From positions 158,596,001 through 158,660,000 of the forward strand of contig OZ024743.1 in assembly GCA_964016885.1 (NCBI GenBank): a stretch of DNA of 64,000 nt. The letters are read 5' to 3'. The stretch comes from Eledone cirrhosa (lineage: Eukaryota). Made by a program: the position numbers and the translations under genes. Below, in pieces: positions 1,875 to 48,262 of this stretch (positions are counted from its first letter, which is position 1; each line of letters begins with the position of its first letter). The notes under the pieces were generated by a model. It did no database searches. It saw only the letters and a program-made list of their open reading frames with translations, and was not told where the DNA came from.

Positions 1875-3353
1875 ACATCATCATCATCATCATCATCATC
1901 ATCGTTTAACGTCCATTTTCCATGCTAGCATGGGTCTGGACGGGAATTGTCCCCTTGAGGCAAGATTGGTTGTCTTGCTCAGGACTGTCTGGCGGGTTTT
2001 CTACGGCTGGATGCCCTTCCTAACACCAACCACGTTTACAGTGTGGACTGGGAGATTTTTACCGTGTTACCTACACGGCCACATTACAGCGTGGACTGTG
2101 TGTTTTATTGTCGTGACACCTACATGTCTGGCGGGTTTTTTACGGCTGGGTGCCCTTCCTAACAACAACCACATTTACAGTATGTACTGGGAGGTTTTTA
2201 CCGTGTTACCTACACGGCCACATTACAGCGTGGACTGTGTGTTTTTTTGTCGTGACACCTACACGACCTCATTTGTTTCGGACTGGATGTTGTGGCACCA
2301 ACATAATTTCACATTTTAGGGGGTGGTGTGGATGGGGTGGGGGTAGTGGGACGAGGGTGTATTTTGTTAGAGGTGCCTACTGACTGTAGGCGGATCTTCT
2401 GTATAACTGTGTAGCGCCAAAGATCTCGGTCCAGTGACATTGTCTTGGAGAGGTGTAAGTGTGTGAGGTCGGAATTTATCAAGTCGTCCCAGGTTTTTCT
2501 GGGTCTGCCTACTCCGTGGCTACCGTCTATTTTTATCGCCCTGCACTTTTTTATACAGCTGTCTTTCATGTGCATCACGTGACCGTACCAACGTAGTCTT
2601 CTCTCGAGTAAACAACATCTGATCCCTCTTATTCCTAATTTCTTAGTTCATTTATGCTTTGCCATTCACGTATATTACTATTACACATCCAGCGGAGCAT
2701 GCAAGCTTCGTTTCTCTCCAGTCTGCGTATATCCTTTGCACACAATGCCCAGGTCTCACTGCCATGTAACATTGCTGTTCGTATGCAGGCATCTTACAGC
2801 CTGCCTTTCATTTTTAGAGAGAACCCTTTAGCGGCCAATAGTGGTATAAGCTCTCTGAACTTTTTCCATCCTGTTCTGACTCTAGCTACTGTACTTTCAG
2901 AGTACCCTCCTCCACTGCTGATTTTATCACCCAGGTAACGGAAGCTGTCCACTATTTCTATAGAACCATCTGTGCAATGGAATGAGCTAGTATTCTGTGG
3001 GCACTTGCTGCTACTTATTGCACCAGAGCACCGGCCACATATAAAATCTATATTCTTAGTTAGCTTACCTGTGATCCCACTACATCTTTTATGCACCCAT
3101 ACTTTGCATTTGGGACATAAAATGGAGTTTCTGCCTACTCCTTTCCTACACACTGAGCATGGCCATTTCCCAGATGGGACCGGTGCCCTATTTTCCTTCC
3201 TACAAACTAGAACTTTAGTCTTAGACAAGTTAACTAAGGCCTTTTGATTCTAGGCCATGCTTCCATGTTTGGATTTTCTTCTCTAGTTCCGCCATTGATT
3301 CAGCTATGAGTGTTAGATCATCTGCATATAGGAGTTCCCATGGGCAGCCGGTC
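1875..3353 (-). mobile_element. 5'-truncated RTE-clade LINE (RT C-terminus with PHD-like finger, 3' UTR, (GAT)n tail)
   Basis: Minus strand has ELLYADDL, then SKTKVLVC...CSVC...HKRC...CGRC...FRYLGDKISSGGG...ARVRTGWKKFREL, LRWYGHV and GRPRKTW. The tail is (CAT)n on + at ~1876-1902. A ~138-bp tandem duplication lies in the 3' UTR (~1987-2262). Confidence 0.9.
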
Positions 3354-11257: not shown

Positions 11258-11804
11258 GCTCTAAGTGCTTGGCAAAGATTATTGTGTAGATAATTGTGGC
11301 CTTAGGTGATGTTTATCTCTCCAGGCTTTTGACATACATGACAGATGCTGAGAGATTTATCATGTCTCTATAGAATTATGGCTTCTACAGTGGGTGAAAT
11401 AGGGATGGAAAGTGGGTTGTTGATTATCTTCTTCCTCTTACTGAGGAGCTGAACATTAATATTATGTCAAGGAGCAGGGTGAGGAGGTAGATGAGAGGGG
11501 GGGGGGGGAAAGGGCATGGAGAGAGAGACGGGGGGAGGGGGAGTCCAAGTTCAAGAGAGATGTAATAATACAAAGGAAAATAAGAATTAATAGAGGTGGG
11601 GATTTTTCTAAAGAGAAACCTGATATTTTAGCTTGCAAAATAAGTGTTTTTTATACATATAATACTAAACTTATACTTTCTGATGCACATGTATGTATGT
11701 ATGCATATATATATATGCAAAGGTAAACAGAAATAACAAAGCAAACAACACAGTAAAATGAAGAAATATTTTATTAGTTTTACACTTGATATAGTAGGAA
11801 AAGA

Positions 11805-11838
11805 GTCTTAACGTTTCAGACGCTAGTCCTTCATCAGA
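11805..11838 (-). ncRNA. Minimal Penelope-type hammerhead ribozyme motif (degenerate)
   Basis: Minus strand reads CTGATGA A GGAC TAGC GTCT GAAA CG TT AAGAC. The core is intact and stem II is GGAC/GTCT; stem I is weak and abuts the CR1 insertion. Confidence 0.5.
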
Positions 11839-11841
11839 ATG

Positions 11842-12831
11842 CCACAGTACTGAAATATGCAGATGACATCAAGCTGTACCTTGAAATCAAAAGGACAGAT
11901 CCTGAAATCTATAACTCTTTCCTACAATCAGACCTGGACACAATGCAGCAATGGATCACAGACTGGCAACTGAAGCTGGCTGTGGACAAATGTACCACCA
12001 TGCATTTTGTGAAGAAAAATCCAGCGTCCATTTACTCCCTCCACAACACTGATATCAAGAAGTCCTCTTGTGAATGTGACCTGGGCATTACTTTCAGCAG
12101 CGATTTGCGTTGGACAAAGCACGTCTCTAAAATTGTCAAGAAGGCCGAGGGTGTCTTGGCATCACTCAGCAAAACCTTTGTTAGCCGCTCTCCAGCCATC
12201 TATTTAAAGCTGTATACAGCTATGGTACGACCACACTTGGAATTCGCATCATCAGTTTGGAACTCCTATCTTGCTCAGAACATTGACTTCCTGGAAACTG
12301 TGTTCAGAGACGTGCAACCAAGCGCATACCCTCCATCAAACACCTACCATACTCTAAACGCCTTGCTTCCCTGGGCATGGATTCATTGAAGCTCCGACGT
12401 CTGGCAATGGACTTGGTAAACACCCACAAAGTTATTAACCATCTCGCCAACAACAACCCTGAGCACCTTTTTGATTTCCATGTGTCTAACACACGTAGAC
12501 ATGCCTACAAAATCAGAAAACAGCACAGCTCCCACGACTTTCGGAAACATTTTTTCATGCTTATAGTTGCTGAAGCATGGAACAAACTACCTGTGTCAGT
12601 TGTTAGCTGCTGAGACACTGCATCCTTTAAAACCTCCATGCTTCCCGAAATTCGCCAAAACTACACCTGATGTCCCCCTTCCATACACATGCACACATGT
12701 GTATATCATGACTCATGCACTGTTCATTTTCCTGACGTTTGTACATTACCCTATGTACTATACATACACTTTTGATGAGTTGTAGTGCACCTGAGCACTG
12801 TACACAATATTTTCATTATTATTATTAAGAT
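11842..12831 (+). mobile_element. 5'-truncated CR1-group LINE (RT C-terminus, 3' UTR, (ATT)n tail)
   Basis: LKYADDIKLY...LQSDLD...DLGITFSSDLRWTKHV...LYTAMVRPHLEFASSVW...AWNKLP. (ATT)n tail at ~12815-12826. Possible AGAATG TSD at 11836-11841 and 12832-12837. Confidence 0.9.
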
Positions 12832-12891: not shown

Positions 12892-12922
<31 letters not shown>

Positions 12923-13263
12923 AATAAACGTATATTTTATCTTGTTAAATAAATATAACAAATGCAAAGAATGTCCTTCCATGCCTCTGGAACATATCTT
13001 AAACATTGGAAATTTAAGATGTTAACTAACTCCAGTGTATCTGAAATTTTATTGATTATCATTTTTTTTCATCACAATGCTTCTATGTACAATTTAAAAA
13101 AAATAAAACAACCCCCTAATAAGGAAAAATTTTGTCTTATTTTCAAAATGTTTTTCATTTTTGAAAATGTTAATTTTTTTTTAATTTAAATTTATATAGA
13201 AGAAATCTGTGTATTGTTTTATTTTCACAAAAAATCTAAGAATTATTTCCAATATTGTTTCAG

Positions 13264-13360
13264 AATAAAAGAGGAAAATAGACGACTGCTGAAAGAGAAG
13301 GTTGAAAATGAACAGTTAATTAAACTTCTGGAAACTGAGAAAGAGGTTTTAACCAAAAAT
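13264..13360 (+). CDS. Internal coding exon A of a long coiled-coil protein (IKEENRRLLKEKVENEQLIKLLETEKEVLTKN)
   Basis: TTGTTTCAG acceptor and GTAAGA donor; open E/K/L-rich heptad frame; ends in phase 0, compatible with the next exon. The upstream exon was not found in the window. Confidence 0.85.
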
Positions 13361-13440
13361 GTAAGAAGGAAATTTCCTATTTCTATATTCTAATGTGCTA
13401 ATAAATATTGCCTGTACAAGTAAACAAAGTGTATACATTA

Positions 13441-13452
13441 TTTTGGGACACC

Positions 13453-13457
<5 letters not shown>
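13441..13457. mobile_element. Single Tc1/mariner-type TIR end
   Basis: TTTTGGGACACCCTG|TA, the reverse complement of TA|CAGGGTGTCCCAAAA, followed by (TA)n; no partner end found. Confidence 0.5.
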
Positions 13458-13490
<33 letters not shown>

Positions 13491-13958
13491 TCACAAACAT
13501 TTTTTTGAACCACGCCACCTATATCCACAAAACGTAAAAACACCACACACACGTGCGTACCCCCACATAGATACATACTCACCCTCCGAAACCCTCCCCC
13601 ACCCCTCTGACCCCGCTCCATACACACGCACACAACACCGACCTACACCCCACCCCACACACACCTTTTCCTGAACATGGAACCTCGTTCTTCCCCCAAC
13701 TCTCACATACACACACCTACACACATACACCACCTTCAGCCCTCACCGCTCGGACACCCCGCCTCCCTCTCCCCACTCCACCTGCCACCGCCCCTACACC
13801 CCCACACCCTTCCACCACTTGTTTATCTTCATGTTTATTTTTATTTTTATTATTTTTATTTTTATTTTGTACCCCTTCCACCCCCCCCTTTTTTTTTTCT
13901 AAATGTCTCTCCTCCACTCCCCTACACCCTCGGAACTCTCTTCCCACCCACTTTTCGC

Positions 13959-13984
13959 CCGAAGAAGAGCTTATGCCCGAAACG
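13959..13984 (+). ncRNA. Degenerate Penelope-type hammerhead motif
   Basis: CCGAAGA A GAGC TTAT GCCC GAAA CG equals CTGAAGA A GAGC TTAT GCTC GAAACG with two T>C changes; probably inactive. Confidence 0.4.
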
Positions 13985-14071
13985 CCCCCCCCCCCACTCT
14001 CAAGAGCGTGAAACTAATAAACCTTTGTTCGTACTGCCTCTCTGTTTAGTTCCCGTTCCATTTTTCACTAT

Positions 14072-14703
14072 AATTTAAGTAAGAAAAAAAATTTTTAAAA
14101 ATTTTTTTAAAAAAATATTTTCTTATTTTACGTCCTTTATATTATTGTTCTGCATTCTCCTGCATTGAACCACCTAGGTACTATGACATAACCTGTGTAT
14201 TTGCTGGCATGGGCGTACATCTGTGCGCTTATGTTAGTTGATATATTAAATTATCTATATTTATCTCCAATTCACTGATTTGTCGAGCAAACTTGTCAAA
14301 ACCACTTCTAAAAAAATTTTTTTTTTTTTGGGGTGTTAGTAGGCGTCAGTCATCTTACCATCCCATTCCTTCTAACTAGCCTCTGTGTCACGTGATTGAT
14401 TCTTTAGAATCGGCCATTTGACTTGAAGCAGTGAGAATTTCGGTACATAGAATCCAGTCCTCGCAAGCTGTTCGATCTACCGAATTATTATTATTTTTAT
14501 ATGAGCCGCCAGTGTCCGCGCATTGCCTGGAGACTTAACTGAGAATAGACTTCCTGATGACGCAATGAATTCTCGACAGTTGGATTACGTAACTGTCTTT
14601 ATCCCATTGCAGAAACTAATTAGTTGGAGTGAAAATTTAAGTAAGAAAAAAATTTTTTTTAAATTTTTTTAAAAAAATATTTTCTTATTTTACGTCCTTT
14701 ATA
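14072..14703 (+). mobile_element. ~562-bp hammerhead-bearing unit with ~70-bp terminal direct repeat (PLE pseudo-LTR or retrozyme-like)
   Basis: AATTTAAGTAAGAAAAAAAATTTTT...TATTTTCTTATTTTACGTCCTTTATAT occurs at 14072-14142 and again at 14634-14703. The hammerhead ends just before the second copy, which is followed by (TA)n. Confidence 0.7.
14549..14630 (+). ncRNA. Type I hammerhead ribozyme with extended stem II (HHR-A)
   Basis: Stem I ACTTC/GGAGT; CTGATGA at 14554-14560; stem II GCAATG/CATTGC enclosing hairpin GACAGTT/AACTGTC; GAAA at 14612-14615; palindromic stem III CTAATTAG; GUU triplet. Confidence 0.75.
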
Positions 14704-14765
14704 TATATATATATGTAGATAAATCTACCAAGAGTTTACGGTAGTGTCCAATCCGTATGAAGAAC

Positions 14766-14948
14766 TCATAGAGTGTGCTCAAAAGAGCCACCCCTTATCA
14801 AAATAATAGAAATGAATGTAGATTATGTTCCCAAGAACTATTTGAAATAATGAAATCTAAGGATATCCTATTAAATAAACGACAGGAATTAATTATATCG
14901 TGTAATCATAAACTAAAAAAAACATTTAAATATTATAAACCTAATTAA
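14766..14948 (+). mobile_element. C-terminal GIY-YIG fragment of a Penelope-like element (Naiad-like)
   Basis: *SVLKRATPYQNNRNECRLCSQELFEIMKSKDILLNKRQELIISCNHKLKKTFKYYKPN* matches the W.IL..A.PY...C.LC..E...LLNKR.E....C.H C-terminus of this PLE group. Confidence 0.75.
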
Positions 14949-15448
14949 TAACATTATTTTAGAAATTAATATATAATTTAATTTAAATGTTAGTTAACCT
15001 ATAAATTTAATTTAATTAAAATTCTACTACAGATGAGAATATAAAATATTGTGTAATCATAAATTGTGAAAAACCTTTAAATATTACTAATATATACTTA
15101 GTAATTTAATTTATAGATTAATTTTAATTTATTTAACCCTTTATTAAAATTCCTTTACAGATAAAATATAACAAAATATCGTGTATCCAATGACAGAGAA
15201 ATAATTTTTAGTATTATAGACCTAATTAATATACATTTTAGAAATGTATTTATAATTTGGTTTTAAATTTAGTCAACCTAAAAATTTAATTTGATTGGCT
15301 TAAAATTAGTATCCTAATACAGACGGATTGCAGAGTGTCATGTAATCATAGAATGGGATGTGTTTTGGATGTATACCTAGTTAATATATTCTTTGCAATT
15401 TTTGAAAAAATATGTATATGTATGTATGTATATGTATGTATGTATGTA

Positions 15449-15479
<31 letters not shown>

Positions 15480-15865
15480 GTGTATGTATATGTATATGTA
15501 TTAATTTTGATTTCTATTTTGCATATAATTATATTCTGCTATTGATAAAATACAATATCTGTTTTATTTATTGTATACCTAATTAACATATACTATAGAA
15601 ATTAATATATAATTTTTAATTTAGTTAACCTATAATTTATATTCTACTACCGATGTAATACTTTATTTGTTTTTTCCCTATTACTAAATTCATTTCCTAA
15701 TATTGATACCATAACGTTAATAACTTTAATTTAGTTATACTATAATTAATACTCTACTACTATTTAACTTCAAAATTCTGCTTCAAATATTATAAACCTA
15801 ACTAATTTACACCTTAGAAAGCAATATGTTAACTATCTTTAGTTTAGTTAACATATAATTAATGG
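14880..15865 (+). repeat. Degenerate AT-rich tandem repeats (~130-150-bp unit) following the PLE ORF end
   Basis: Recurring ACAGA...GTGTAATCATA...TATTATAAACCTAATTAA...TTAGAAATTAATATA...TTAGTTAACCTATAA motifs, roughly 6 copies. Confidence 0.65.
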
Positions 15866-16049
15866 TATACTTATTTTGAAATGCATAATTTTGCCTTATT
15901 TCTTGCATTTCCTAACACTGAAACTATGTAAAAACATATATTGAGATCCAAATACAGATTAATATTCTATGTTTCTTGAAACATATATTTACTATAATCC
16001 CCTTCTCAACCCCCCCCCCCCTTTCCCCCATACTATTATCATCTGTGTT

Positions 16050-16211
16050 TGTAAGCGTGTATGTATGAATATATATGTAGGTAGGTGTATATATGTTTGG
16101 GTGTTTATATCTGAGTATAAAAATACATATATGCACATGCAAATAAGAATGTATGATTGTGTGTATATATATATGTGTATATATATATATGTGTATATAT
16201 GCATGTGTATA

Positions 16212-16242
<31 letters not shown>

Positions 16243-16273
16243 GTGTATATGTGTATATGTGTGTGGGCGTGTA

Positions 16274-16306
<33 letters not shown>

Positions 16307-18186
16307 GTGTGTATGTATGTGTATGTATATATGTGTATGTATATGTATGTCACTCTATATATATGTCTATCTTCGTATCTATGTGGGTATATGTGTGTAT
16401 GTACATGTATGCACATGTATATGTTTATGGGTATATGTGTGTATGTGTATATATGTACGTGTGCGCACATATATATGTGAGTGTGTGTGTGTGTGTGTAT
16501 ATATATATATGTATATCTATGTGTGTATATATATATATTCGTATGTGTATATATATATATTATTTATTATTGTAATATTTATTATTATAATATGACATGT
16601 GTATATGTATATATGTGAAGGTGTGTATGTGTATATATATGTATATATATATGTAAAAATATATATGTGTATGTGTGTTTTTGTGTGTGTGTATATATAT
16701 GTATATATGTGTGTATGTATGTGTTTGTATGTGTGTTTATGGTTGTATGTGTGTATGGGTATATATATAAATGTATGTGTATATATATATATATATGTGT
16801 ATATGTATCTCTATTAATGTGTGTATATATGTATATGTATATACCTTTTTCTTTGTATGTCTGAGTTGTGTGAGAGTGTAGTGGTGTTTGTATGTATATA
16901 CGCATATATGGATGCGTATGTATTTGTATATATGCGTATATGTAAGTGCGTATGTGTGTATGAATATATATCTATGTCTATGTATGAGTATGTATGTGTG
17001 TGTATGTATGTGTGTGTGTATGTATGTATGTGTGTATGTGTGTATATATATATATATATATGTGTGTATATGTATGTATGTATGTGTATGTATGTACATA
17101 TATGTGTATGTATATGTGTATATATATATATGTGTATATATGTATATATATATGTATATGTTTATTTTATATATATATGTGTGTGTGTGTATGTGTGTGT
17201 ATATATATCTTTATATATGTGTATGTGTATGTTTGTGTAGGTGTGTGTGTGTGTGTGACTATATATGTATGTGTGTATGTGTGTATGTATGTATGTGTAT
17301 GTGTGTGTAAGAGTCAATGGCCATCCAAAATCACCGGGAGAGATGACCCCTTAGCCTTTGTCAAGGCAGAATTCTAGGAGAAGGAAAACTCTGATATAAC
17401 ACCTGCAACCCTGATGGTATCCAATGATGTTGACTTGTTCTTCTTTTTGGTAAATATCATCTTGGTTAAGAGAGTGGGACTGGCTTTGTGCAGTGCCTTT
17501 GCTCACTATAAAAGCTTCACGGCACAGGCATTGCTTTATATCTGGAGATCTCTCTGCACTTGTCGTCACATGGTACCATGGGCCCAGCACTATGTGTCAG
17601 TAATTGTCACAAGTGTAGTGTTTGTACCAGAGTTTTCAAGTCGCTGGCTGGACTAAAAAGTCACACTCGTTCAGCGCATCGGTAGGGGTTCTCCTACATG
17701 GATATAAAGTAGTGGCCGTACTCGAAAACGAGTTGGCAGCCACCATATATATATATGTATATATATATATATATGTATATGTATCTCTATTTGTATGTGT
17801 TATGTGTATATGTATATACCTTTTTCTTTGTATGTCTGAGTTGTGTGAGAGTGTAGTGGTGTTTGTATGTATATACCGATATATGGATGCGTAAGTATTT
17901 GTATATATGCGTATATATAAGTACGTATGTGTGGGTGAATATATATCTATGTCTATGTATGAGTATGTATGTGTGTGTATGTATGTGTATATGTGTGTAT
18001 GTATGTATGTATGTCTGTATGTATATGTGTGTATATATATGTATGTATGTGTATGTCTGTATGTATATAAGTATGTATGTGTATGTATATGTGCATGTAT
18101 GTGTATATATATATGTGTGTCTATATATGTGTGTGTGTATATATGTGTATATATTGTATATATGTGTGTATATATATATATATGTA

Positions 18187-18217
<31 letters not shown>

Positions 18218-18260
18218 GTATATGTTTATATATGTGTGTGTGTGTGTGTTGTATGTGTAG

Positions 18261-18300
<40 letters not shown>
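16050..18300. repeat. Compound (TA)/(TG)/(TATG) microsatellite block with internal duplication
   Basis: Direct inspection; source of many spurious Y/I/C/V/M ORFs. Confidence 0.95.
17309..17745 (+). mobile_element. Short non-autonomous RTE-derived element (5' end plus 3' C2H2 end)
   Basis: The 5' part has GGAGAAGGAAAACTCTGA, similar to RTE 5' UTRs. The 3' part encodes CHKCSVCTRVFKSLAGLKSHTRSAHR*, a C-terminal C2H2 finger seen in RTE-type LINEs. Confidence 0.55.
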
Positions 18301-18304
<4 letters not shown>

Positions 18305-18914
18305 TTGATATATTTCTTTTTTCTTTTTCTTTTTCTTTTCTTTTCTTTTTATTTCTAAGTTTATAGATACATCTATAAATAAGCAGTCTGCCCAATCCGT
18401 TGAATACTGACCTCTCCCCCCCCCCTCCCACCTAATTTCTGTATCTTGATCTAAATGTGTGTGGCAGTGTTTATGTGAGTGAATTAATATCCATGTGCTT
18501 ATGATAATATTATATCCACATATATATGTGTGTGGGGGTGTGTGTGTGTATGTATGTTCGTAATTATGTGTATGTTTATGCATATACGCGCGCGTGTCTG
18601 TGGGTGTACGGATATGTGTGAGTATGAGAATATGTGTATACACTTATTTCATATTTATGTGTCTATACGCATTTTATCTGTGGATTTAAACTTACAGAGA
18701 CATTAGCCTTGAATTTTTGTATTTGCATACATCTTTTTGGCATGCGTATGCATGTTGAGCATATATCTTTGTATAAATATGTGTACGGGGTTAGTTACAT
18801 GTATATACACACACAAAACTGCATAAAACTTTTTGTATTTTCATTGGTCAATTTTGAACTCCGTTCCCAAACTGACCTGAAATTTTGAATTGTTGTTATT
18901 ATCAATAAATATAT

Positions 18915-19059
18915 TTCATTATTTCTGAAGACGGCATATATGTGTGTTTGGTATGTATATTTAATCTTGATAGTTTGTATAATTTTGTACATAGATCTGT
19001 TGAATATGCATGCCAATTCTAACACATATATATCCTAGAAACGATCGTTAAATAATGAA
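18915..19059 (+). ncRNA. Type I hammerhead ribozyme with ~106-nt stem-loop II (HHR-B)
   Basis: Perfect 10-bp stem I TTCATTATTT/AAATAATGAA; CTGAAGA at 18925-18931; stem II ATATATGTGTGTT/AACACATATATAT and TGGTATGTATATTTAA/TTGAATATGCATGCCA (G-U pairs); GAAA at 19038-19041; palindromic stem III CGATCG; GUU triplet. Confidence 0.85.
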
Positions 19060-19133
19060 CTTTTTTTGTTTAATATAAGGAACTGTTTCATTGTTTTATT
19101 CATTATTTGTTTTATATATATATATATATATAT

Positions 19134-19461
19134 ATACGATATTAACAAATGGAAACTATATTTATAAAACCATATTTATTTCATTATACATATTTCAAGG
19201 GCACCAAGTTAAATTATGGTGTGCTTTCATCAGACAAAATATAATATAGATCAGTTTTATAAATAAATATTGACATACCCTTAAAAAATGCAACCATTAC
19301 TGTTCCAACAGTAATGGTATGTCAATATTTATTTATAAAACTGATCTATATTATATTTTGTCTGATGAAAGCACACCATAATTTAACTTGGTGTTCTTGA
19401 AATATGTATAATGAAATAAATATGGTTTTATAAATATAGTTTCCATCTGTTAATATCGTAT
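19134..19461. repeat. 146-bp near-perfect inverted repeat (19134-19279 / 19316-19461) with nested central hairpin; inverted PLE pLTR
   Basis: The arms are reverse complements with about 3 mismatches. The spacer contains ACCATTACTGTT-CC-AACAGTAATGGT. The whole insertion (19134-19548) is flanked by (TA)n. Confidence 0.95.
19354..19418 (+). ncRNA. Type I hammerhead motif (HHR-C); mirror copy on - strand at 19177-19241
   Basis: Stem I TATTTTGT/ATGAAATA (G-U pairs); CTGATGA at 19362-19368; stem II AAGCACACCA/TGGTGTTCTT; GAAA at 19399-19402; stem III TATGTA; AUA triplet. Confidence 0.7.
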
Positions 19462-19545
19462 GTTTACTCCAAATACTTGTTGAGTGCTTTATATCAGTTA
19501 TAAAAATATTTGTTTGTTGTATCCCAACAATTTAAATAGAACTTT

Positions 19546-19576
<31 letters not shown>

Positions 19577-19589
19577 TTCGTATTTCTAA

Positions 19590-20240
19590 AGAAACACAGT
19601 TTTAGGAAGCCGTAGCTATGCAAACACTGGGGCTAACGTCCTCTGGTCGTGTCCAGCAGAAGCAAGGGGGACAACCGTCCACTACATGGATTGACTCTTT
19701 GCCTCTGGCTCATAGGGATGAACACAACATTCATCCTGAGTTAGGAAACATTCAAGGAAACCAGCCAGATCTGTCTCAACCAGTATCAGAATTTCCCCTG
19801 ATATGATCAGCCTGGTGAGCTTTTGATCACTGAGCAGAAACCTTTGTCATGCCAAGTTCATTGTGCAGAATATTTTCAACTTTTTCATGGGATATGGTAA
19901 TAGCACTGGTTATTTGATTTATAGTCAATTGCCTGTCATCCATCACACTGTGGTGAACATGATCAATGTTTTCCTCTGTATTGCAGGACTTCTAAAACTT
20001 TGGTAATCTTTAAGACTTTCCCTTCCCATCCTAAATTCAGCTACCCACTTTAGCACTGTTGACAAAACTGGAGTGTCATCCCCTAATGTAGCAACTATGT
20101 CAGCATGAATGTCTTTGGGGTCTAAACCCTTTCTCTCAAGTACTTGATAACACCACAACACCAAAATTTGTCCATTTTCAAGAGAAGGTCATCATGGGTT
20201 ACTTTTAAAGCCTTCTTTGAACAGTCAGATGTCAGTTTAT
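19590..20240 (-). mobile_element. Mariner transposase remnant
   Basis: KGLDPKDIHADIVATLGDDTPVLSTVLKWVAEFRMGRESLKD (mariner HTH), ENILHNELGMTKVSA and QDECCVHPYEPEAKSQSM (DETW..YEPE.K.QS motif), with frameshifts. Confidence 0.85.
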
Positions 20241-20279
20241 CTGGAAAGAAACAATGCAGTTATTAATAAGAATAGATGA

Positions 20280-20515
20280 AATTATATATATGGATGATGT
20301 TCGCTGGCTGAAGAAGTGCCAGGGCATCCCAGTAGAAGGAAGCCATAGTAGAGATAGATAAAGAAATACCTTAATAGATGTGGTGAGCATTGATCTCAAG
20401 TTTCGAGCCTCACAGGGGAGATGACAAACAAGACAAGTGGAGAGATGCTGTGTTGAAAAGGACACATCTAACCCATGCATGTGGAAAAATTGACCTAAAA
20501 ATGATAATGTTGATG
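20280..20515 (+). mobile_element. RTE 3'-end fragment (similar fragments at ~52020-52215 and ~62085-62440)
   Basis: Degenerate KKC...VEG...GRP.K.W coding end plus the AACCCATGC...TGGAAAA...GATGATGAT terminus. Confidence 0.65.
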
Positions 20516-21693
20516 ATACAGTCCTTGGTTGAAGAGTTTAATGCAAGATTTGGATGTGAGGCAGTGTAGGGGATGGGTGAAAGATAAAAACGCAGCTACA
20601 TCAAATTGACCTGGGGTTCAGTTGGTAGACGTACTTTGTTGCCTTGGCTGACTTTAGTAGAGTTTACCCTGTTGCAAACATTATAACCAGGACTTGTCTT
20701 TAGAATAAGCTTCTTTCCTTTCCACCATCATATAAGACTTGAAAAGCATCTTGGATACTACCCTTCTACCACTGACTAAGCCATGAAAATAGACACACAT
20801 ACATATCACCTGCCAAATAATAGAAAATATATATAAAGGAACCTATGTGGATGGCTTTTTGGGGAGATGTAATAGTTAAAAGAGCAAACACTATGCAATC
20901 TATTGTATTAATTTTAGTTGTCTACCTACATGCTCTGAGTTCAAATCCCACCAAGGTCAATAGTAGTTAAGGGCCCATAGGCTTGGAATAGTTATAGAAT
21001 ATCCATGTATGTTGCAGCAGCTCATCCTTGTATTTTAATCTATGTTAGGCATGTGCTATGTTGAAGTATTTTCTGATTTTGAATAGGAAACCTTACAAAT
21101 ATCATATTGAATAGAGATATTTATCTTTCATATGTTTAACACCCTGAGAAACCCTTGAAAATACTCCCTCTCTCTCATCCACACACAGTACTTATGTACT
21201 TACATACATATATGCACATATATACATACCTCCAATCAATTAGTGGTACAGTGTGGATTTGTAAAACATTCCAAAGATTCTCTCTTTGAGTTCCCATATC
21301 TGTAGAATCACTTATGTCCATACAAAGACACACACGTACGCATGCACACGCACACACACACAAACACACATACATGGAAAGTAATATCCATTATAAAGAG
21401 ACATGTGTATTCATTACATGAGTGCATGGACATTCACATGAACTCCTACATATACACATAACAGGAATTCATATCACATGTATTCACAAATCCCTGAAAC
21501 TGTCTTCATTGAAACAAAAATATCTTCTCACTTTGTTTAGCGACAAGGTTTGAATTCCATGAAGAAGAATTTAAATAAATCTTATCGAAAATGCACACAC
21601 ATACACACACATTCACGCACACACACACACATCATTTATACGCATATATTTATATGTATACACACATATCATATATACTCACATGGCTTAGAT

Positions 21694-21840
21694 GGAGGCA
21701 CATGGCTTAGTGGTTAGAGCATTGGCCTTGCAATCGAAAGGTTGTGAGTTCAATTCTCAGACCGGGTGGTGTGTTGTTTCCTTGAGCAAGACACTTTATT
21801 TCACATTGCTCCAGTTTACTCAGCTGTAAAAATGAGATGA
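21694..21840 (+). mobile_element. tRNA-derived SINE, family B (other copies ~29291-29570 +, ~57445-57782 -, ~59695-60025 +)
   Basis: A-box TGGCTTAGTGG, B-box GAGTTCAATTC, body GTGTCCTTGAGCAAGACACTTTATTTCAC...CTCAGCTGTAAAAATGAG. Confidence 0.8.
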
Positions 21841-22470: not shown

Positions 22471-22605
22471 ACAAATCAGGAGATCAAGAGTAACCAGAAA
22501 GACATTGCCAAAATGGAGGTGGATTTGGATCAGGCTAACCAAATGAACAAAGAACTCAAAGTGGCAAATGAAGTCCTTACTGAGAAAATTAATGAATCTC
22601 AAAAT
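22471..22605 (+). CDS. Coding exon B (TNQEIKSNQKDIAKMEVDLDQANQMNKELKVANEVLTEKINESQN)
   Basis: TTATTCAG acceptor, phase 0; a frame-compatible end requires the GC donor GCAAGT at 22606. Confidence 0.85.
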
Positions 22606-24436
22606 GCAAGTAGTTTTGTCATTTTTTTTACATTGTTTTTAACACTTTAACTATCTCACTGGTTTCTTAATTAGAATGTATTATCAACTGATGCATTTGT
22701 ATGAGTTGTCACTGTTGTTGCATTTTGCCTTTTAGCCTCAGGTCTGCCTAAACTGAACAGATTTGTGGTCAAGAGGATTCCACTCATTACTATCCGATTT
22801 GTTTTTTAGGTTTAGTGATTGCAAGACAACATCCTTCTATTGAGAGAGATTTGATTCCTATTTTTAACAGTGCTTGATTCGTGTTTTTACATAGCTGGGT
22901 ACTTTTTTTATTCATTAGCTTCTATAACATATGCTTTTACCATGATTCATTGAAATATTTAAGAACTGACCTGTTGTTTAAACCCATTTCAGTCTTGATT
23001 GAGGAGAATTATGACCAAAGGAATTCCAGCCTTGGCAATTCTGTCATTTTAGCTGTATCCAGGATTATCCTATAGCATATGCCCTTTCCTTTTTAAGAGA
23101 GTAGTATATAATTTCAGGAAGCTTTTACTAGCAGGTTAGACAACCAGATAGAGGCTCCAGTTTGTGTGAGTTGCTGGCACACGTAATTTCAGCTATGTTA
23201 CCAGACTTCAGCCTTCATCAAGCAGACTTATAATGAAAGGCGTTCTAGCCTTGATAGCCATGTCTTTTTTGTGTATACAAGACTACATTGCCTAATGTGT
23301 CTTCCTTTGTTTTTCATCCTTTCCTTACCTTATCTCTAATGAAATACATTGTTTCAATTAATTTTGAAAATAATCAAAAATTTTGGAGGGTTTAGTAAAT
23401 TAACTAAGATCTTCATTATTATGTCTGTGTTTGGAATACATCATAACAAAAAGTTTTCACATAAAATTATGAAGGATGGTTATATATTACCCTTTTTCAT
23501 ACCAGTCAACCTACTCTGGTTCTATGATAAAAATCTCTTAGAAAAGTATATATTTTCCTAAATCCTTTTGTAATTATTTCCAAAATTAATAGAAACACAG
23601 AAATTATGTAACAAATTTTCTCACGGAAGTGAGACATTAAAATGAGTATTTTGGTATTATGTAGAACCAGAGATATTCTTAGATATGTTTTGATTGTAGG
23701 TTTTGAAAGAGATTTAGCTGCAATTCTTCGTAGGGTGAATGACTGCAGAAAGATATCCTTGTTAGATCACAAGACCAAACTTGATATAAATAAACACTTT
23801 CTCTATCTCTGTAAACAATTTTTATACCATAGAACTGTTAGAGTGTATTTCTCTTTATAATTCTTTTGATAACCCATCTAAGACCACAGCTGGATCTACA
23901 AGCTGACAAGGGAGCCTTTATTTAGTCACTCAACCTGCTTGAAAAATCAGACAAATCTCCTTCAAATCACCATCTGAGCATCTTTAAAAAAAGCACACAT
24001 TGAATGCTACGGTTCTGGCTTCTGTGTGTATACAAAAAAAAGCTGGATGGTCAAGGCTGGAATGCCTTTGATCATAAGCCTGCTTGACCAGGGCTGCTAT
24101 ATCTAGCAGGTGGGGTGAAGGCTCCTGTACTGGTTTGATTTCACTTTGGCTCATTTAGTTCTACTTTAAATCCAATAGATTGTGATCCAAGGAAAGAATC
24201 TCTACAGGGTCAATTTGACTTGTTAGAATTAGCACACAACTCTTGAATCAAACCATACCTTATTAAAAAAAGGAATGATATATTATACTGTGTAGTTCAG
24301 CACAAAAAAGCAGATGTTAAAGGATGATGATGGTCATAATTGGAATACCTTTTATCACAGGGCTGTTAATTCAGGGCTATCTTAACAAGAACAAAACTAA
24401 CAATAAAATCTGATTGTTTTATTTCTTTTTTTATAG

Positions 24437-41166: not shown

Positions 41167-43467
41167 TTGTTTCTTTTATTTGCCACCAGGGCATCAAAAG
41201 TGGGACAAGTACAATGGGGGGAGTTTACAAAACAAGGTGTCCTCAATAAGGAGGAGGCAATAACAATATATAAAAATAAAATAAAATATAACAAAAAATA
41301 AAATTTATAACAAAGTCCTCAATAGAGAGGAGGCGCCTTGGGAGGTCGCACACACCCCCGAAAAAAGTGTGCAACCCTTCTCCTCAGGAGCACAGAGAAG
41401 GGGTGCTCCCTTGGTCTTTCATCTTCCTCACCTATAGTCTGATGTAGAGTGAAGGCCCATTCACACGGGCCATTCTCGCCACTTTCACCCATCTTTCATA
41501 GAAACGGCTGGGGTGCAGCACCTCTCTCTCCATCCTGATCCTTCTTCCGAAATGATATCGGAAGAAACGGACCAGTCGTTGGCCAGAGAGAAAGGTGTCT
41601 GACCTCAGTCCTTTCAGATGCGTCCACCATACAACCTCTTTCGCCATGGCTATTACGCACAGAAACACCGCCTCTCCTTCGTTTTTGAAGAGGGGAGGCG
41701 GCTTGATCGTTACAATAGACTCGGTGGTCAACCGGATCGGTCCCACCCTTGACAGCAGTTGTTCGACATAGCCCCACAGATCGGCAATGCCCAAGCAGTG
41801 TACCAATGCGTGTGCAACGGTTTCCTCATCGCACACGCATCTGGGACAGATCTTTTTCGATGGGTCCCTACCCGGGCGCCCGTGTCTGTAGAGCCTTTCT
41901 CGAATGGTGAGACGAGTCTGGGAAAGGCTCGCCTCACAAACGGGGCCCACACCGGTTGACCGGAGAGGAATACCTGTAGGTGCCGTAGCCTTAATGTGTG
42001 TTTACTATCATCAGCCACGGCATCCCCAGCCCTCCTTTCGAAGGGTGTTGACAGCAGATGGATCTCCTCACTATAGGAGCCCGCTTCTTCCAAAGGAATT
42101 GGAAGAGTGCGCGCTCCATTTTGGCGAGCGTTTCCCTTGGGCAAGGCACAACGGTCTGGCGGTAGTAGATGACGGACGCTATATAAGTGTTCGCCACCTC
42201 CGCCCGACCTTTCAGGGACAGTTTGCACTCGGCCCACTTCTGGGTCAGTGAAAACACCCTGTTTGTCACCTCACCCCAGTTCTTCTCCACCTGGAGGTCT
42301 GGTCCGAACCAGACCCTGAGCAACTTCACCGGGCCCCCCGTCCAGCGCCCGACGACGCCATCGGAGGGCATCGATCTGCCCCTCCACGTGCCGAGTTGCA
42401 GACCGATCAACTTGTCCCGGTTCAGCTTAGCCCCTGTAAACCTTTCGTACTCCTCCAGTAAGGTGTCGATCGCCCCGATTTCCGAGGCCGTCGACACCAT
42501 TACTGTCACATCATCGGCGTAGGCTGACACCGCTTTCCGCAATCCCGGTTCCAACGGGATGCCCTGCAACAACTCCAACTTCCGCAGCAGTGGCTCTAGA
42601 GTCATTACATACAGAAGGGAGGAGAGAGAGCACCCCTGTCGGATGGACCGCGCGATTTCGAACGGCTCCGAGAGGTAGCCGTTCACCTTGACCCTAGAGC
42701 AGATGTGGCTGCTGTGCATGGCATTGATCCAGCCCCTGAAAACGGGTCCGAAGCCTGCCGCCGCTAGCACCGCATCCAGGTAACCATGGTCGACCCTATC
42801 GAATGCCTTAGATTGATCCAAGATGATCAGGGCCCCACCAAAGCCGGGTTCGTTCCCAACCCTCTCTATGATGTATCGCATGAGGTGGAGGTTATCGTGG
42901 ATGGACCTGGACGGGATAGCACATGTCTGCGCATCTCCCACCAGGTTGCCCACGACAAGCGCCAACCTCTTTGCTAGCACCTTGGCCAAAATCTGTAACT
43001 CTGTATTTAGCAGAGTTATGGGCCTGAAATTATTTATATCGTCCCCCTTGTTCTCGTCCTTCCTCACTAGCGTGACTACGCCCTTGGTCACAGCACAAGG
43101 AATTCTCCCGTTCTGTTGCCAGTTGCAGTAGACCGCCTCGAGGAGATCGGGGAACAAGTCCGGCATAGCTAGATATAGTTCGTATGGAAGACCATCGAGA
43201 CCCGGGGATTTGCGTTTGCCGCATTGGCTCAGCACGTCCTCTATCTCAGCGGCTGAAATCGGCTCCTCGCAGGACTTCGCTTCCCTGTCCGAGAGACGCG
43301 GCAGGCCGTCGAGGTATGGACCGAAGTCCACGTCCCCAACCGGCCCCCCGCCCCCTCCGAACAATCCGGCAAAGTGCTTTTGAAAAGCCTCACACATCTG
43401 CTTAGGTTCAAGGATCACCCGTCCATCCTGGTCTCGCAAAGACCGGATAGTGGATCTGCTCCCTCTT
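41167..43467 (-). mobile_element. 5'-truncated L1/Tx1-clade LINE with 482-aa RT ORF and C-terminal CCHC finger
   Basis: ORF 41991-43439 contains KSPGLDG, RPITLLN, LDQSKAFDRV, RQGCSLS and AYADD; downstream CPRCVCDEETVAHALVHC. A-rich 3' end. GC-rich relative to the host sequence. Confidence 0.92.
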
Positions 43468-44344
43468 GGTATATATATATAGATAGATAGATAAATATAT
43501 TAGTATCAACTCTAGTTTATACTTGGTCTTAAAATATTTAGTAAATGTAAAATTTAGAGTACAACTTTGAATAGACAAATTTGAGTATCTAAATATTAAT
43601 CTAATCTTTCCCAGTACGGTCTCAGAGGTCCTGTAAAATGGCCATCTATGCTGTGCAAAGCAATACAGAAACAGAATGAATATTTAGAAGAAAGAATATT
43701 TAGCCATCTCACAAATGCTATATTGCAGACATGTCTGACCTATGTTAGCTTGCAAACATGAATATTCAAATTTTAATTATGATGATAAAGATGATGCTGA
43801 TGATGCTTGAAGTGCAATGTAGTAATATCCTCATTATCAAAATAATGTTTATTTTGCATGATTAGAATGGATACATTATTCCTTCTGCAGATAGTGTTTC
43901 AGTGAAATACTTTATTCCACTAATCTTCAAAGTGGATTAATACTGAATTCTACTAAAGGTTAAATCTTAAAGGTCATGACTAATTGATCTTTGTGCATTG
44001 GTGTGAAATGTCAGCAGTTTTGGCAAAAACAAAAAAAAACTGTATATATATATATGCTGCTTCAGACTGTGAACGTCTTGTGTCAGTTTAATGCAAGGAA
44101 CTGCTCTGGCAATATATACTTGTATTTGCCTACATAATATGCATTTTAGTATATGTGTGTATCTGGATTCAGTGGGCCTGTTTTTATTTTCTGCCTCAAA
44201 TTCATGCTTATAATGTCTAATATCACTTTGCATGCACATGCACGTGCATGCGCATGCACACACACACACATAGATGATTGTGTATTTTTTTTTTTGGTAG
44301 TGCATGTGGTTCAGGGCAAGGTAAAAAGAGTAAGCTATTAGGGG

Positions 44345-48147: not shown

Positions 48148-48262
48148 GAAACAGAAATGGGAAGCTACCCAAGGAACTGATGCTGAGTCATCTCGTCTAG
48201 AACTGGAGCAAACGAAAGAAGAACTCGAACAACAGCGAATTGCTAATGATTTGCTGAAGAAG
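48148..48262 (+). CDS. Coding exon F ((Q)KQKWEATQGTDAESSRLELEQTKEELEQQRIANDLLKK)
   Basis: TTTTTTCTTTTATCTCACCAG acceptor, AAG|GTAATA donor; phase 2 to 0. Confidence 0.9.

Follow-up and report, generated by a model that had tools for sequence, protein, structure and literature searches.

A hammerhead motif with a long stem II

A type I hammerhead motif occupies positions 18915 to 19059 on the + strand of the window, i.e., the whole 64-kb stretch of DNA that was analysed, and forms the end of a high-copy repeat. Judged by its sequence, this is a genuine and conserved hammerhead variant, present in high copy and of the kind known from Penelope-like elements (PLEs), whose predicted stem II is exceptionally long. 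The motif, its repeat status, a (TA)n flank, a strand-biased fold, and pair-keeping variants were observed, and a link to PLEs is likely from the sequence resemblance. The reading I prefer, to which I assign a probability of roughly 0.7, is that this type I motif ends a high-copy repeat that is likely a truncated or non-coding PLE, that its arm has 41 predicted pairs, and that by the folding model it would be cleaved after U19049, likely only as a dimer.

The 5′ strand of stem I (18915-18924) makes 10 Watson-Crick pairs with the 3′ strand (19050-19059) and is followed by the core box CUGAAGA (C3-A9, 18925-18931). Next comes C18932, which stands opposite A19037 where stem II begins, either as an extra nucleotide or as a mismatch; the same opposition recurs in a second hammerhead of the window (14561/14611) and in the published PLE-X1_cBra. 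The long stem-loop II (18933-19036) is predicted by folding to consist of helices of 2, 13, 17, 3, and 6 pairs with one 5-nt bulge. A19037 then leads into the core box GAAA (G12-A15.1; together 19037-19041), and the spacing between the two boxes is 106 nt (18932-19037). The segment from 19042 to 19049 holds the palindromic stem III, CGAUCG (19042-19047), which becomes an 8-nt palindrome once A19041 and U19048 are counted, and the GUU triplet (19047-19049), an NUH triplet with a predicted cut site after U19049. The hallmarks of a type I hammerhead are present, namely the CUGANGA and GAAA boxes in this order, the A15.1-U16.1 pair with the NUH triplet, and the closing stem I. In place of the canonical G10.1-C11.1 pair stands the C18932·A19037 opposition, and the next position is a G-U or an A-U pair. 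The sequence-only reading had described a hammerhead with a perfect 10-bp stem I, a ~106-nt stem-loop II, CUGAAGA, GAAA, the palindromic CGAUCG, and GUU, and all of these parts were borne out at their coordinates by sequence, fold, and shuffles; it had overlooked that stem II starts with a C·A opposition. On the same strand, a 3′ tail (19060-19112) follows, in which two near-copies (19088-19109) of the 5′ strand of stem I are found. A (TA)12 tract (19113-19136, of unassigned strand) lies at the 3′ end of the element and is its likely target site.

Could such a motif arise by chance? Folding of the region, as the sequence-only reading had proposed, gave −45.5 kcal/mol (z = −6.6), and none of 200 shuffled sequences was equally stable. 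The active (catalytic) fold is 3.4 kcal/mol less stable than the minimum-energy fold. Stem II by itself has a z of −7.9, with none of 300 shuffles as stable. A motif scan gave 0.01 matches per locally shuffled 64-kb window, and the strict form (a stem I of at least 8 pairs and a palindrome of at least 4) appeared in 0 of 200 shuffles. As a control, 68 core-box matches from metagenomes were given a stem test; none had a stem I of at least 5 pairs, the best having 4, and these matches to the architecture pattern were set aside as chance. The exact family motif had no match in metagenome contigs or in viral contigs. The motif is a genuine type I hammerhead motif, beyond chance. It had been anticipated that standard searches would miss it, and indeed the hammerhead family is absent from the 60 Rfam matches at E ≤ 1 in the 64-kb window, as expected given the 100-nt insert.

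The repeat family in public reads

The repeat family was surveyed by comparing 4 of the 23 listed public read runs, X1, X4, and X21 included, with 18600-19112. RNA runs are absent from the list, which has no bearing on expression. In X1, 1330 contigs matched this interval. The summed word depth of X1, which is not a copy number, was 4,000-36,000 at 18600-18869, 155,000-362,000 at 18888-18941 (the 5′ core), and 0.68-1.0 million at 19014-19085, so that the hammerhead end exceeds the upstream body some 30-fold or more. A high-copy repeat ends in the hammerhead, and this 3′ end is its most abundant part. The far lower coverage of the upstream repeat body (18600-18914, + strand) is likely due to 5′ truncation. 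Copies beginning at the cut site were not in excess in X1 (depth of 1.0 million at 19032-19049 vs 0.81 million at 19050-19067).

Short high-depth contigs of X4 differ from the window at one position over 18884-18948 and at none over 18974-19048. Thus, the C·A opposition is the family state. Two alleles of the cut site were found in X1: GUU makes up ~64% of the depth, and GUA, with A at 19049, makes up ~36% (58 contigs). Among the 40 variants listed of 110, which are unphased and mostly G/A transitions, nine fall within 18915-19059. Four of the nine keep a pair: G18942A, G18999A, A19054G, which leaves a U-G pair in stem I, and G18933A, which does so in the catalytic register only, its pair being lost in the minimum-energy register folded without constraints. 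Two lie at unpaired positions (T18984A and T19017C), one turns GUU into GUA (T19049A), and two break a pair (T18915A and T19001A). The changes in these nine are all one-sided, and no two-sided compensatory change was found among the 40 listed of 110. In 732 X21 reads, a loose end represents a sister form in which, by eye, the positions corresponding to G19008 and G19012 are both A, so that two G-U pairs become A-U pairs.

The peaks of read beginnings and ends in X21 were rejected as cleavage sites or element ends. They fall on two restriction sites, so the peaks are library cuts. The same library artefact may explain the loose ends at 19059 and 19082.

Is the motif a catalytically dead relic? 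It might derive from an ordinary PLE hammerhead with a loop II that was enlarged when microsatellite-like DNA was duplicated in inverted orientation, and the family would have spread with no need of cleavage. The partial (AU)n/(GU)n make-up of the arm would fit such a history, as would the C·A junction, the GUU site, and the competing tail, and anole PLE hammerhead mutants kept insertion in vitro at an unreduced level (PMC11167929). However, neither the core boxes nor the palindrome has a variant among the 40 listed of 110, and the core boxes are unchanged in this set while the subfamily flanks differ. The GUA allele, in about a third of the X1 depth, also speaks against a dead relic, as does the recurrence of the C·A/GUU design in the unrelated hammerhead at 14549, C·A being present in a published PLE as well (File S2 of PMC8557442). 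I consider this alternative unlikely, and two properties of the arm, its strand asymmetry and its read depth, weigh against it further.

The arm of stem II

Stem II has 41 predicted pairs (2 + 13 + 17 + 3 + 6). All six non-Watson-Crick pairs within the arm helices are G-U pairs, five of them in the 30-bp long arm. A ~30-bp, G-U-rich stem II had been described earlier; the 30-bp long arm stands, while "G-U-rich" is an overstatement because only 6 of the 41 predicted pairs are G-U. In its proximal part, the arm consists of (AU)n/(GU)n-(AC)n sequence. The folding energy of the arm is −41.2 kcal/mol for the + strand vs −18.9 kcal/mol for the − strand, a difference which the G/T-rich + strand may inflate through G-U pairing. 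This advantage of the + strand points to pairing at the RNA level, not to a decaying DNA palindrome, and argues against the dead relic. The arm of the 14549 hammerhead has no such strand bias (−14.7 vs −15.2 kcal/mol). The X1 depth within the arm is 185,000-244,000, not above that of the core, which rules out the arm as an independent high-copy insert or MITE and likewise counts against the relic. Joints that skip 74-82 nt of the arm were not accepted as short-arm variants, since the intervening letters are unknown.

It may be that the arm is retained as a + strand RNA structure in master elements. Its simplest role would be that of a stable scaffold closing the core across the C·A junction, and the docking of a protein on the arm is possible; the RT-binding or regulatory role proposed in the sequence-only reading may likewise exist.

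Alternatively, the arm may undergo A-to-I editing as double-stranded RNA within the template for retrotransposition, its G-U pairs being edits that reverse transcription has fixed. The arm would then be a handle for host editing or silencing and not a scaffold. RNA editing is heavy in cephalopods, and ADAR prefers a 5′-U neighbour. All six G-U pairs could come from A-to-G changes of the sense strand, the family or the sister allele has A at four of the G-U sites (18942, 18999, 19008, and 19012), and each G of the G-U pairs comes after a U. However, selection on pairing yields the same pattern, most purines here follow T regardless, and the direction of change is unpolarised. Editing of the arm seems very unlikely to me, and it would be compatible with the preferred reading of a dimeric PLE-type hammerhead.

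Dimer formation and the tail

For the palindrome, an 8-bp dimer duplex is predicted at −10.0 kcal/mol vs +2.4 kcal/mol for the monomer hairpin. The short stem III is, according to this model, unstable in a monomer, which is characteristic of the dimeric hammerheads of PLEs. PLE hammerheads are described as requiring a dimer via a palindromic stem III and as cutting slowly in vitro (PMC4209133), and their dimer mode has also been reviewed (PMC6765202). The earlier suggestion that the palindromic stem III implies dimeric cleavage agrees with the modelled energies and with the PLE norm as given in PMC4209133. Within the 64-kb window, no second copy of the 18915-19059 motif was found as a dimer partner; the solo copy at 18915-19059 is probably mostly silent. 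A heterodimer with the 14549 hammerhead was rejected (+1.0 kcal/mol).

The palindromes of two tandem copies on one transcript, or of two different RNAs of the family, would join to form one 8-bp stem III between them. The shared stem III would then permit slow, probably protein-assisted cleavage after U19049, by analogy with other PLE hammerheads. In an anole PLE, hammerhead cleavage needed protein, the uncut RNA was the main template, and reverse transcription started at either end of a 30-40-nt tail (PMC11167929).

The tail may act on stem I. The pair probability of stem I is ~0.85 when the RNA is folded to 19085 and ~0 when it is folded to 19113 with the full tail, and the near-copies at 19088-19109 are predicted to sequester 19050-19059. 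Since the tail can, by this prediction, unzip stem I, the full-length RNA would remain uncut for the most part and act as a template for reverse transcription. The loss of stem I with the full tail would suit a template that must remain uncut, as in the anole element.

The element and its neighbours

Several traits of PLEs are present: a hammerhead near the 3′ end, a short tail, a high copy number, and 5′-truncated, direct-repeat, and inverted layouts. A remnant of an RT or GIY-YIG domain was found neither by Pfam in 12900-16051, 17300-17751, 18300-18931, and 19100-21201 nor in the ORF lists. The copy at 18915-19059 is likely a truncated or non-autonomous PLE derivative. An array of tandem units each with a hammerhead, which is a trait of non-LTR retrozymes, does not occur in the 64 kb.

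Three further hammerheads lie within 5 kb, and the elements end at (TA)n tracts. The second hammerhead (14549-14630, + strand) consists of CUGAUGA followed by C, a 49-nt stem-loop II, A followed by GAAA, an 8-nt palindrome, GUU, and a 5-bp stem I. It is unrelated in sequence to the motif at 18915-19059 and has the same architecture, including the C·A junction. A 71-bp tail and (TA)7 follow it, the locus extending to 14704, and the tail is duplicated at 14072-14142 with 96% identity. This arrangement (14072-14142 and 14549-14704) resembles a partial tandem of a PLE. The other two hammerheads (19354-19418 on the + strand and 19177-19241 on the − strand) have a 30-nt stem II and an AUA triplet. 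They belong to a head-to-head inverted repeat of 92% identity, which extends from 19134 to 19461-19549 and is flanked by (TA)n tracts. Direct-repeat and inverted layouts are described for PLEs in PMC8557442; thus, these neighbours between (TA)n tracts match published PLE layouts. A decayed, minimal hammerhead-like motif with a 4-bp stem II and two core changes can be recognised by eye at 13959-13986.

Comparison with known elements

The PLE type I hammerheads described in PMC4209133 share with 18915-19059 the type I topology, a short palindromic stem III that needs a dimer, an extra nucleotide after A9, and many solo genomic copies. Their helix II has 6-8 bp and a conserved G10.1-C11.1 pair, whereas 41 predicted pairs and the C·A opposition are found here. 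File S2 of PMC8557442 holds 31 families of the Hydra and Chlamys groups. The base of stem II is unpaired in 16 of these 31 (14 with U·U, one with U·C, and one with C·A), a GUU site is present in 10, and one family has a stem I of ~10-11 nt. The 10-bp stem I and the GUU site had been called atypical, a view that these precedents contradict. A U-U start of stem II is also known in a natural hammerhead, according to PMC3088659. The longest stem-loop II in File S2, that of PLE-X1_sMoe, has ~53 nt, and the arm at 18915-19059 is about twice as long. Since GUU, (TA)n flanks, a long stem I, a mismatch where stem II begins, and a palindromic stem III have all been published for PLE hammerheads, the comparison indicates that arm length alone sets this motif apart; among the PLE hammerheads of File S2, the other features have precedent.

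PLE-X1_cBra, a member of the Chlamys branch from Chara, is similar in having C after CUGAUGA, A before GAAA, and an even palindromic stem III. It differs in its 6-bp stem II, 4-bp stem I, UUC site, and plant lineage (File S2 of PMC8557442). The Hydra-clade PLEs also have a 3′ hammerhead, a mismatch at the base of stem II, a GUU or GUA site, and (TA)n targets, and they occur in Octopus (PMC8557442). On the other hand, their stem II has 3-7 bp, the mismatch is mostly U·U, and stem III is mostly odd-centred; the Hydra-1_Obim motif differs in sequence from 18915-19059 (PMC8557442). The copy at 18915-19059 lacks an ORF for the short RT with a C-terminal endonuclease of this clade. With respect to junction, site, and target, the sequence comparison suggests that the Hydra clade fits at least as well as Naiad. 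The non-LTR retrozymes described in bioRxiv 10.64898/2026.07.22.740005 resemble this repeat as non-coding repeats with a PLE-derived type I hammerhead. They consist of tandem units each with a hammerhead, in contrast to the solo copy at 18915-19059.

Is this the overlooked ribozyme of Naiad elements? Naiads, which are reported in PMC8557442 to lack canonical hammerheads, prefer (TA)n targets and occur as remnants in cephalopods. The Naiad search described there used core spacers of 7-17 nt, and two cephalopod Naiads are marked 'HHR_half_core' in the same source. The window itself is probably from an octopod, as the best named match of its RT at 42060-43499 comes from Argonauta. The (TA)n target at 19113-19136 would also suit Naiads, though it is common to Hydra elements, and the Hydra-clade PLEs share in addition the occurrence in Octopus, the mismatch at the base of stem II, and GUU. 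The Naiad ORF described in PMC8557442 has an N-terminal GIY-YIG, CxC, and an RT with a fingers insertion, and no remnant of it was found in the stretches scanned. Eight of the nine window motifs are absent from the Naiad, Chlamys, and Hydra parts of the supplement that were looked up, where line breaks may hide matches, and the ninth matches PLE-X1_cBra of a charophyte alga and not a Naiad. Three Octopus Naiad 3′ ends in these parts are unlike 18915-19059 by eye, unaligned, and where core-like words occur in Octopus Naiad 3′ ends, in two cases, GAAA precedes CUGAUGA, also by eye. I therefore hold a Naiad origin of the ribozyme to be highly improbable. The sequence-only reading had placed the motif at the 3′ end of a Naiad-like element; the 3′ end of a repeat is supported by the X1 depth, while the Naiad assignment found neither an ORF remnant nor a match in the supplement parts looked up. 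The proposed start of that element at 14766 was not confirmed by ORFs, Pfam, or the same supplement parts.

In the literature searched, no precedent for a long stem II in a retrotransposon was found; the survey of Lunse et al. and the supplements of PMC4209133 and of the bioRxiv preprint may have long-arm cases. In the texts matched, "long helix II" denoted 6-8 bp, and another match concerned helix III.

Surveys of PLE hammerheads limit the length of stem II or of the spacer, as with the 7-17-nt core spacer in PMC8557442. Within the same 5 kb, one high-copy family has a 106-nt arm and a second one has 51 nt, which suggests that length-limited surveys undercount, and claims of PLE clades without hammerheads therefore need rechecking. 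With so many copies at hand, covariation could be analysed and the roles of PLE ribozymes tested. A broader proposal, which I put forward only as a long shot, is that long-armed hammerheads missed by current search models end abundant (TA)n-targeting PLEs of cephalopods. The 41-pair arm would be a selected domain for RT docking or an edited double-stranded RNA, an optional, built-in tail would turn the ribozyme off by unzipping stem I, and the design may be the ribozyme of reputedly hammerhead-free elements such as Naiads.

Other features of the window and the supplement

Three sequences in the Naiad section of the PMC8557442 supplement have, by eye, GAAAC ~25-30 nt upstream of CUGAUGA. Such a permuted order would escape type I descriptors.

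The region 14715-18900 consists of AT-rich and (TA/TG)n stretches together with a short insert that matches a C2H2 finger. At 14715-14830, right after (TA)7, two adjoining hairpins are predicted, with no match in the Naiad parts of the supplement looked up. Diverged internal repeats of ~150 bp with 68-77% identity were seen in the AT-rich stretch 14895-15860. The ~440-bp insert (17310-17745, within 16767-18284) has a C2H2 zinc-finger match (E of 1e-4) and is probably a LINE 3′ fragment; duplicated microsatellite-rich segments of ~550 bp with 83% identity flank it.

Exon-like coiled-coil frames lie at 13265-13346, 22471-22608, and 48148-48262 on the + strand. If these three frames belong to one gene, the hammerheads are intronic and in the sense orientation. 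A homologue search with the frame at 22471-22608 found none.

No tRNA gene was found in a search of the window, and a tRNA-like head at 21703-21760 (28.1 bits, just below the Rfam cut-off) is probably a SINE. The microRNA matches of Rfam were rejected as low-complexity and below gathering scores. A remnant of the HTH of a mariner-type transposase (PF17906, E of 0.0016) lies at ~20020-20140 on the − strand. LINE-like fragments are present at 2794-3249 and 11790-12389. A 502-aa open frame at 41991-43499 on the − strand encodes a non-LTR reverse transcriptase, and the best named match of the RT (42060-43499), 64% identical, is from Argonauta.
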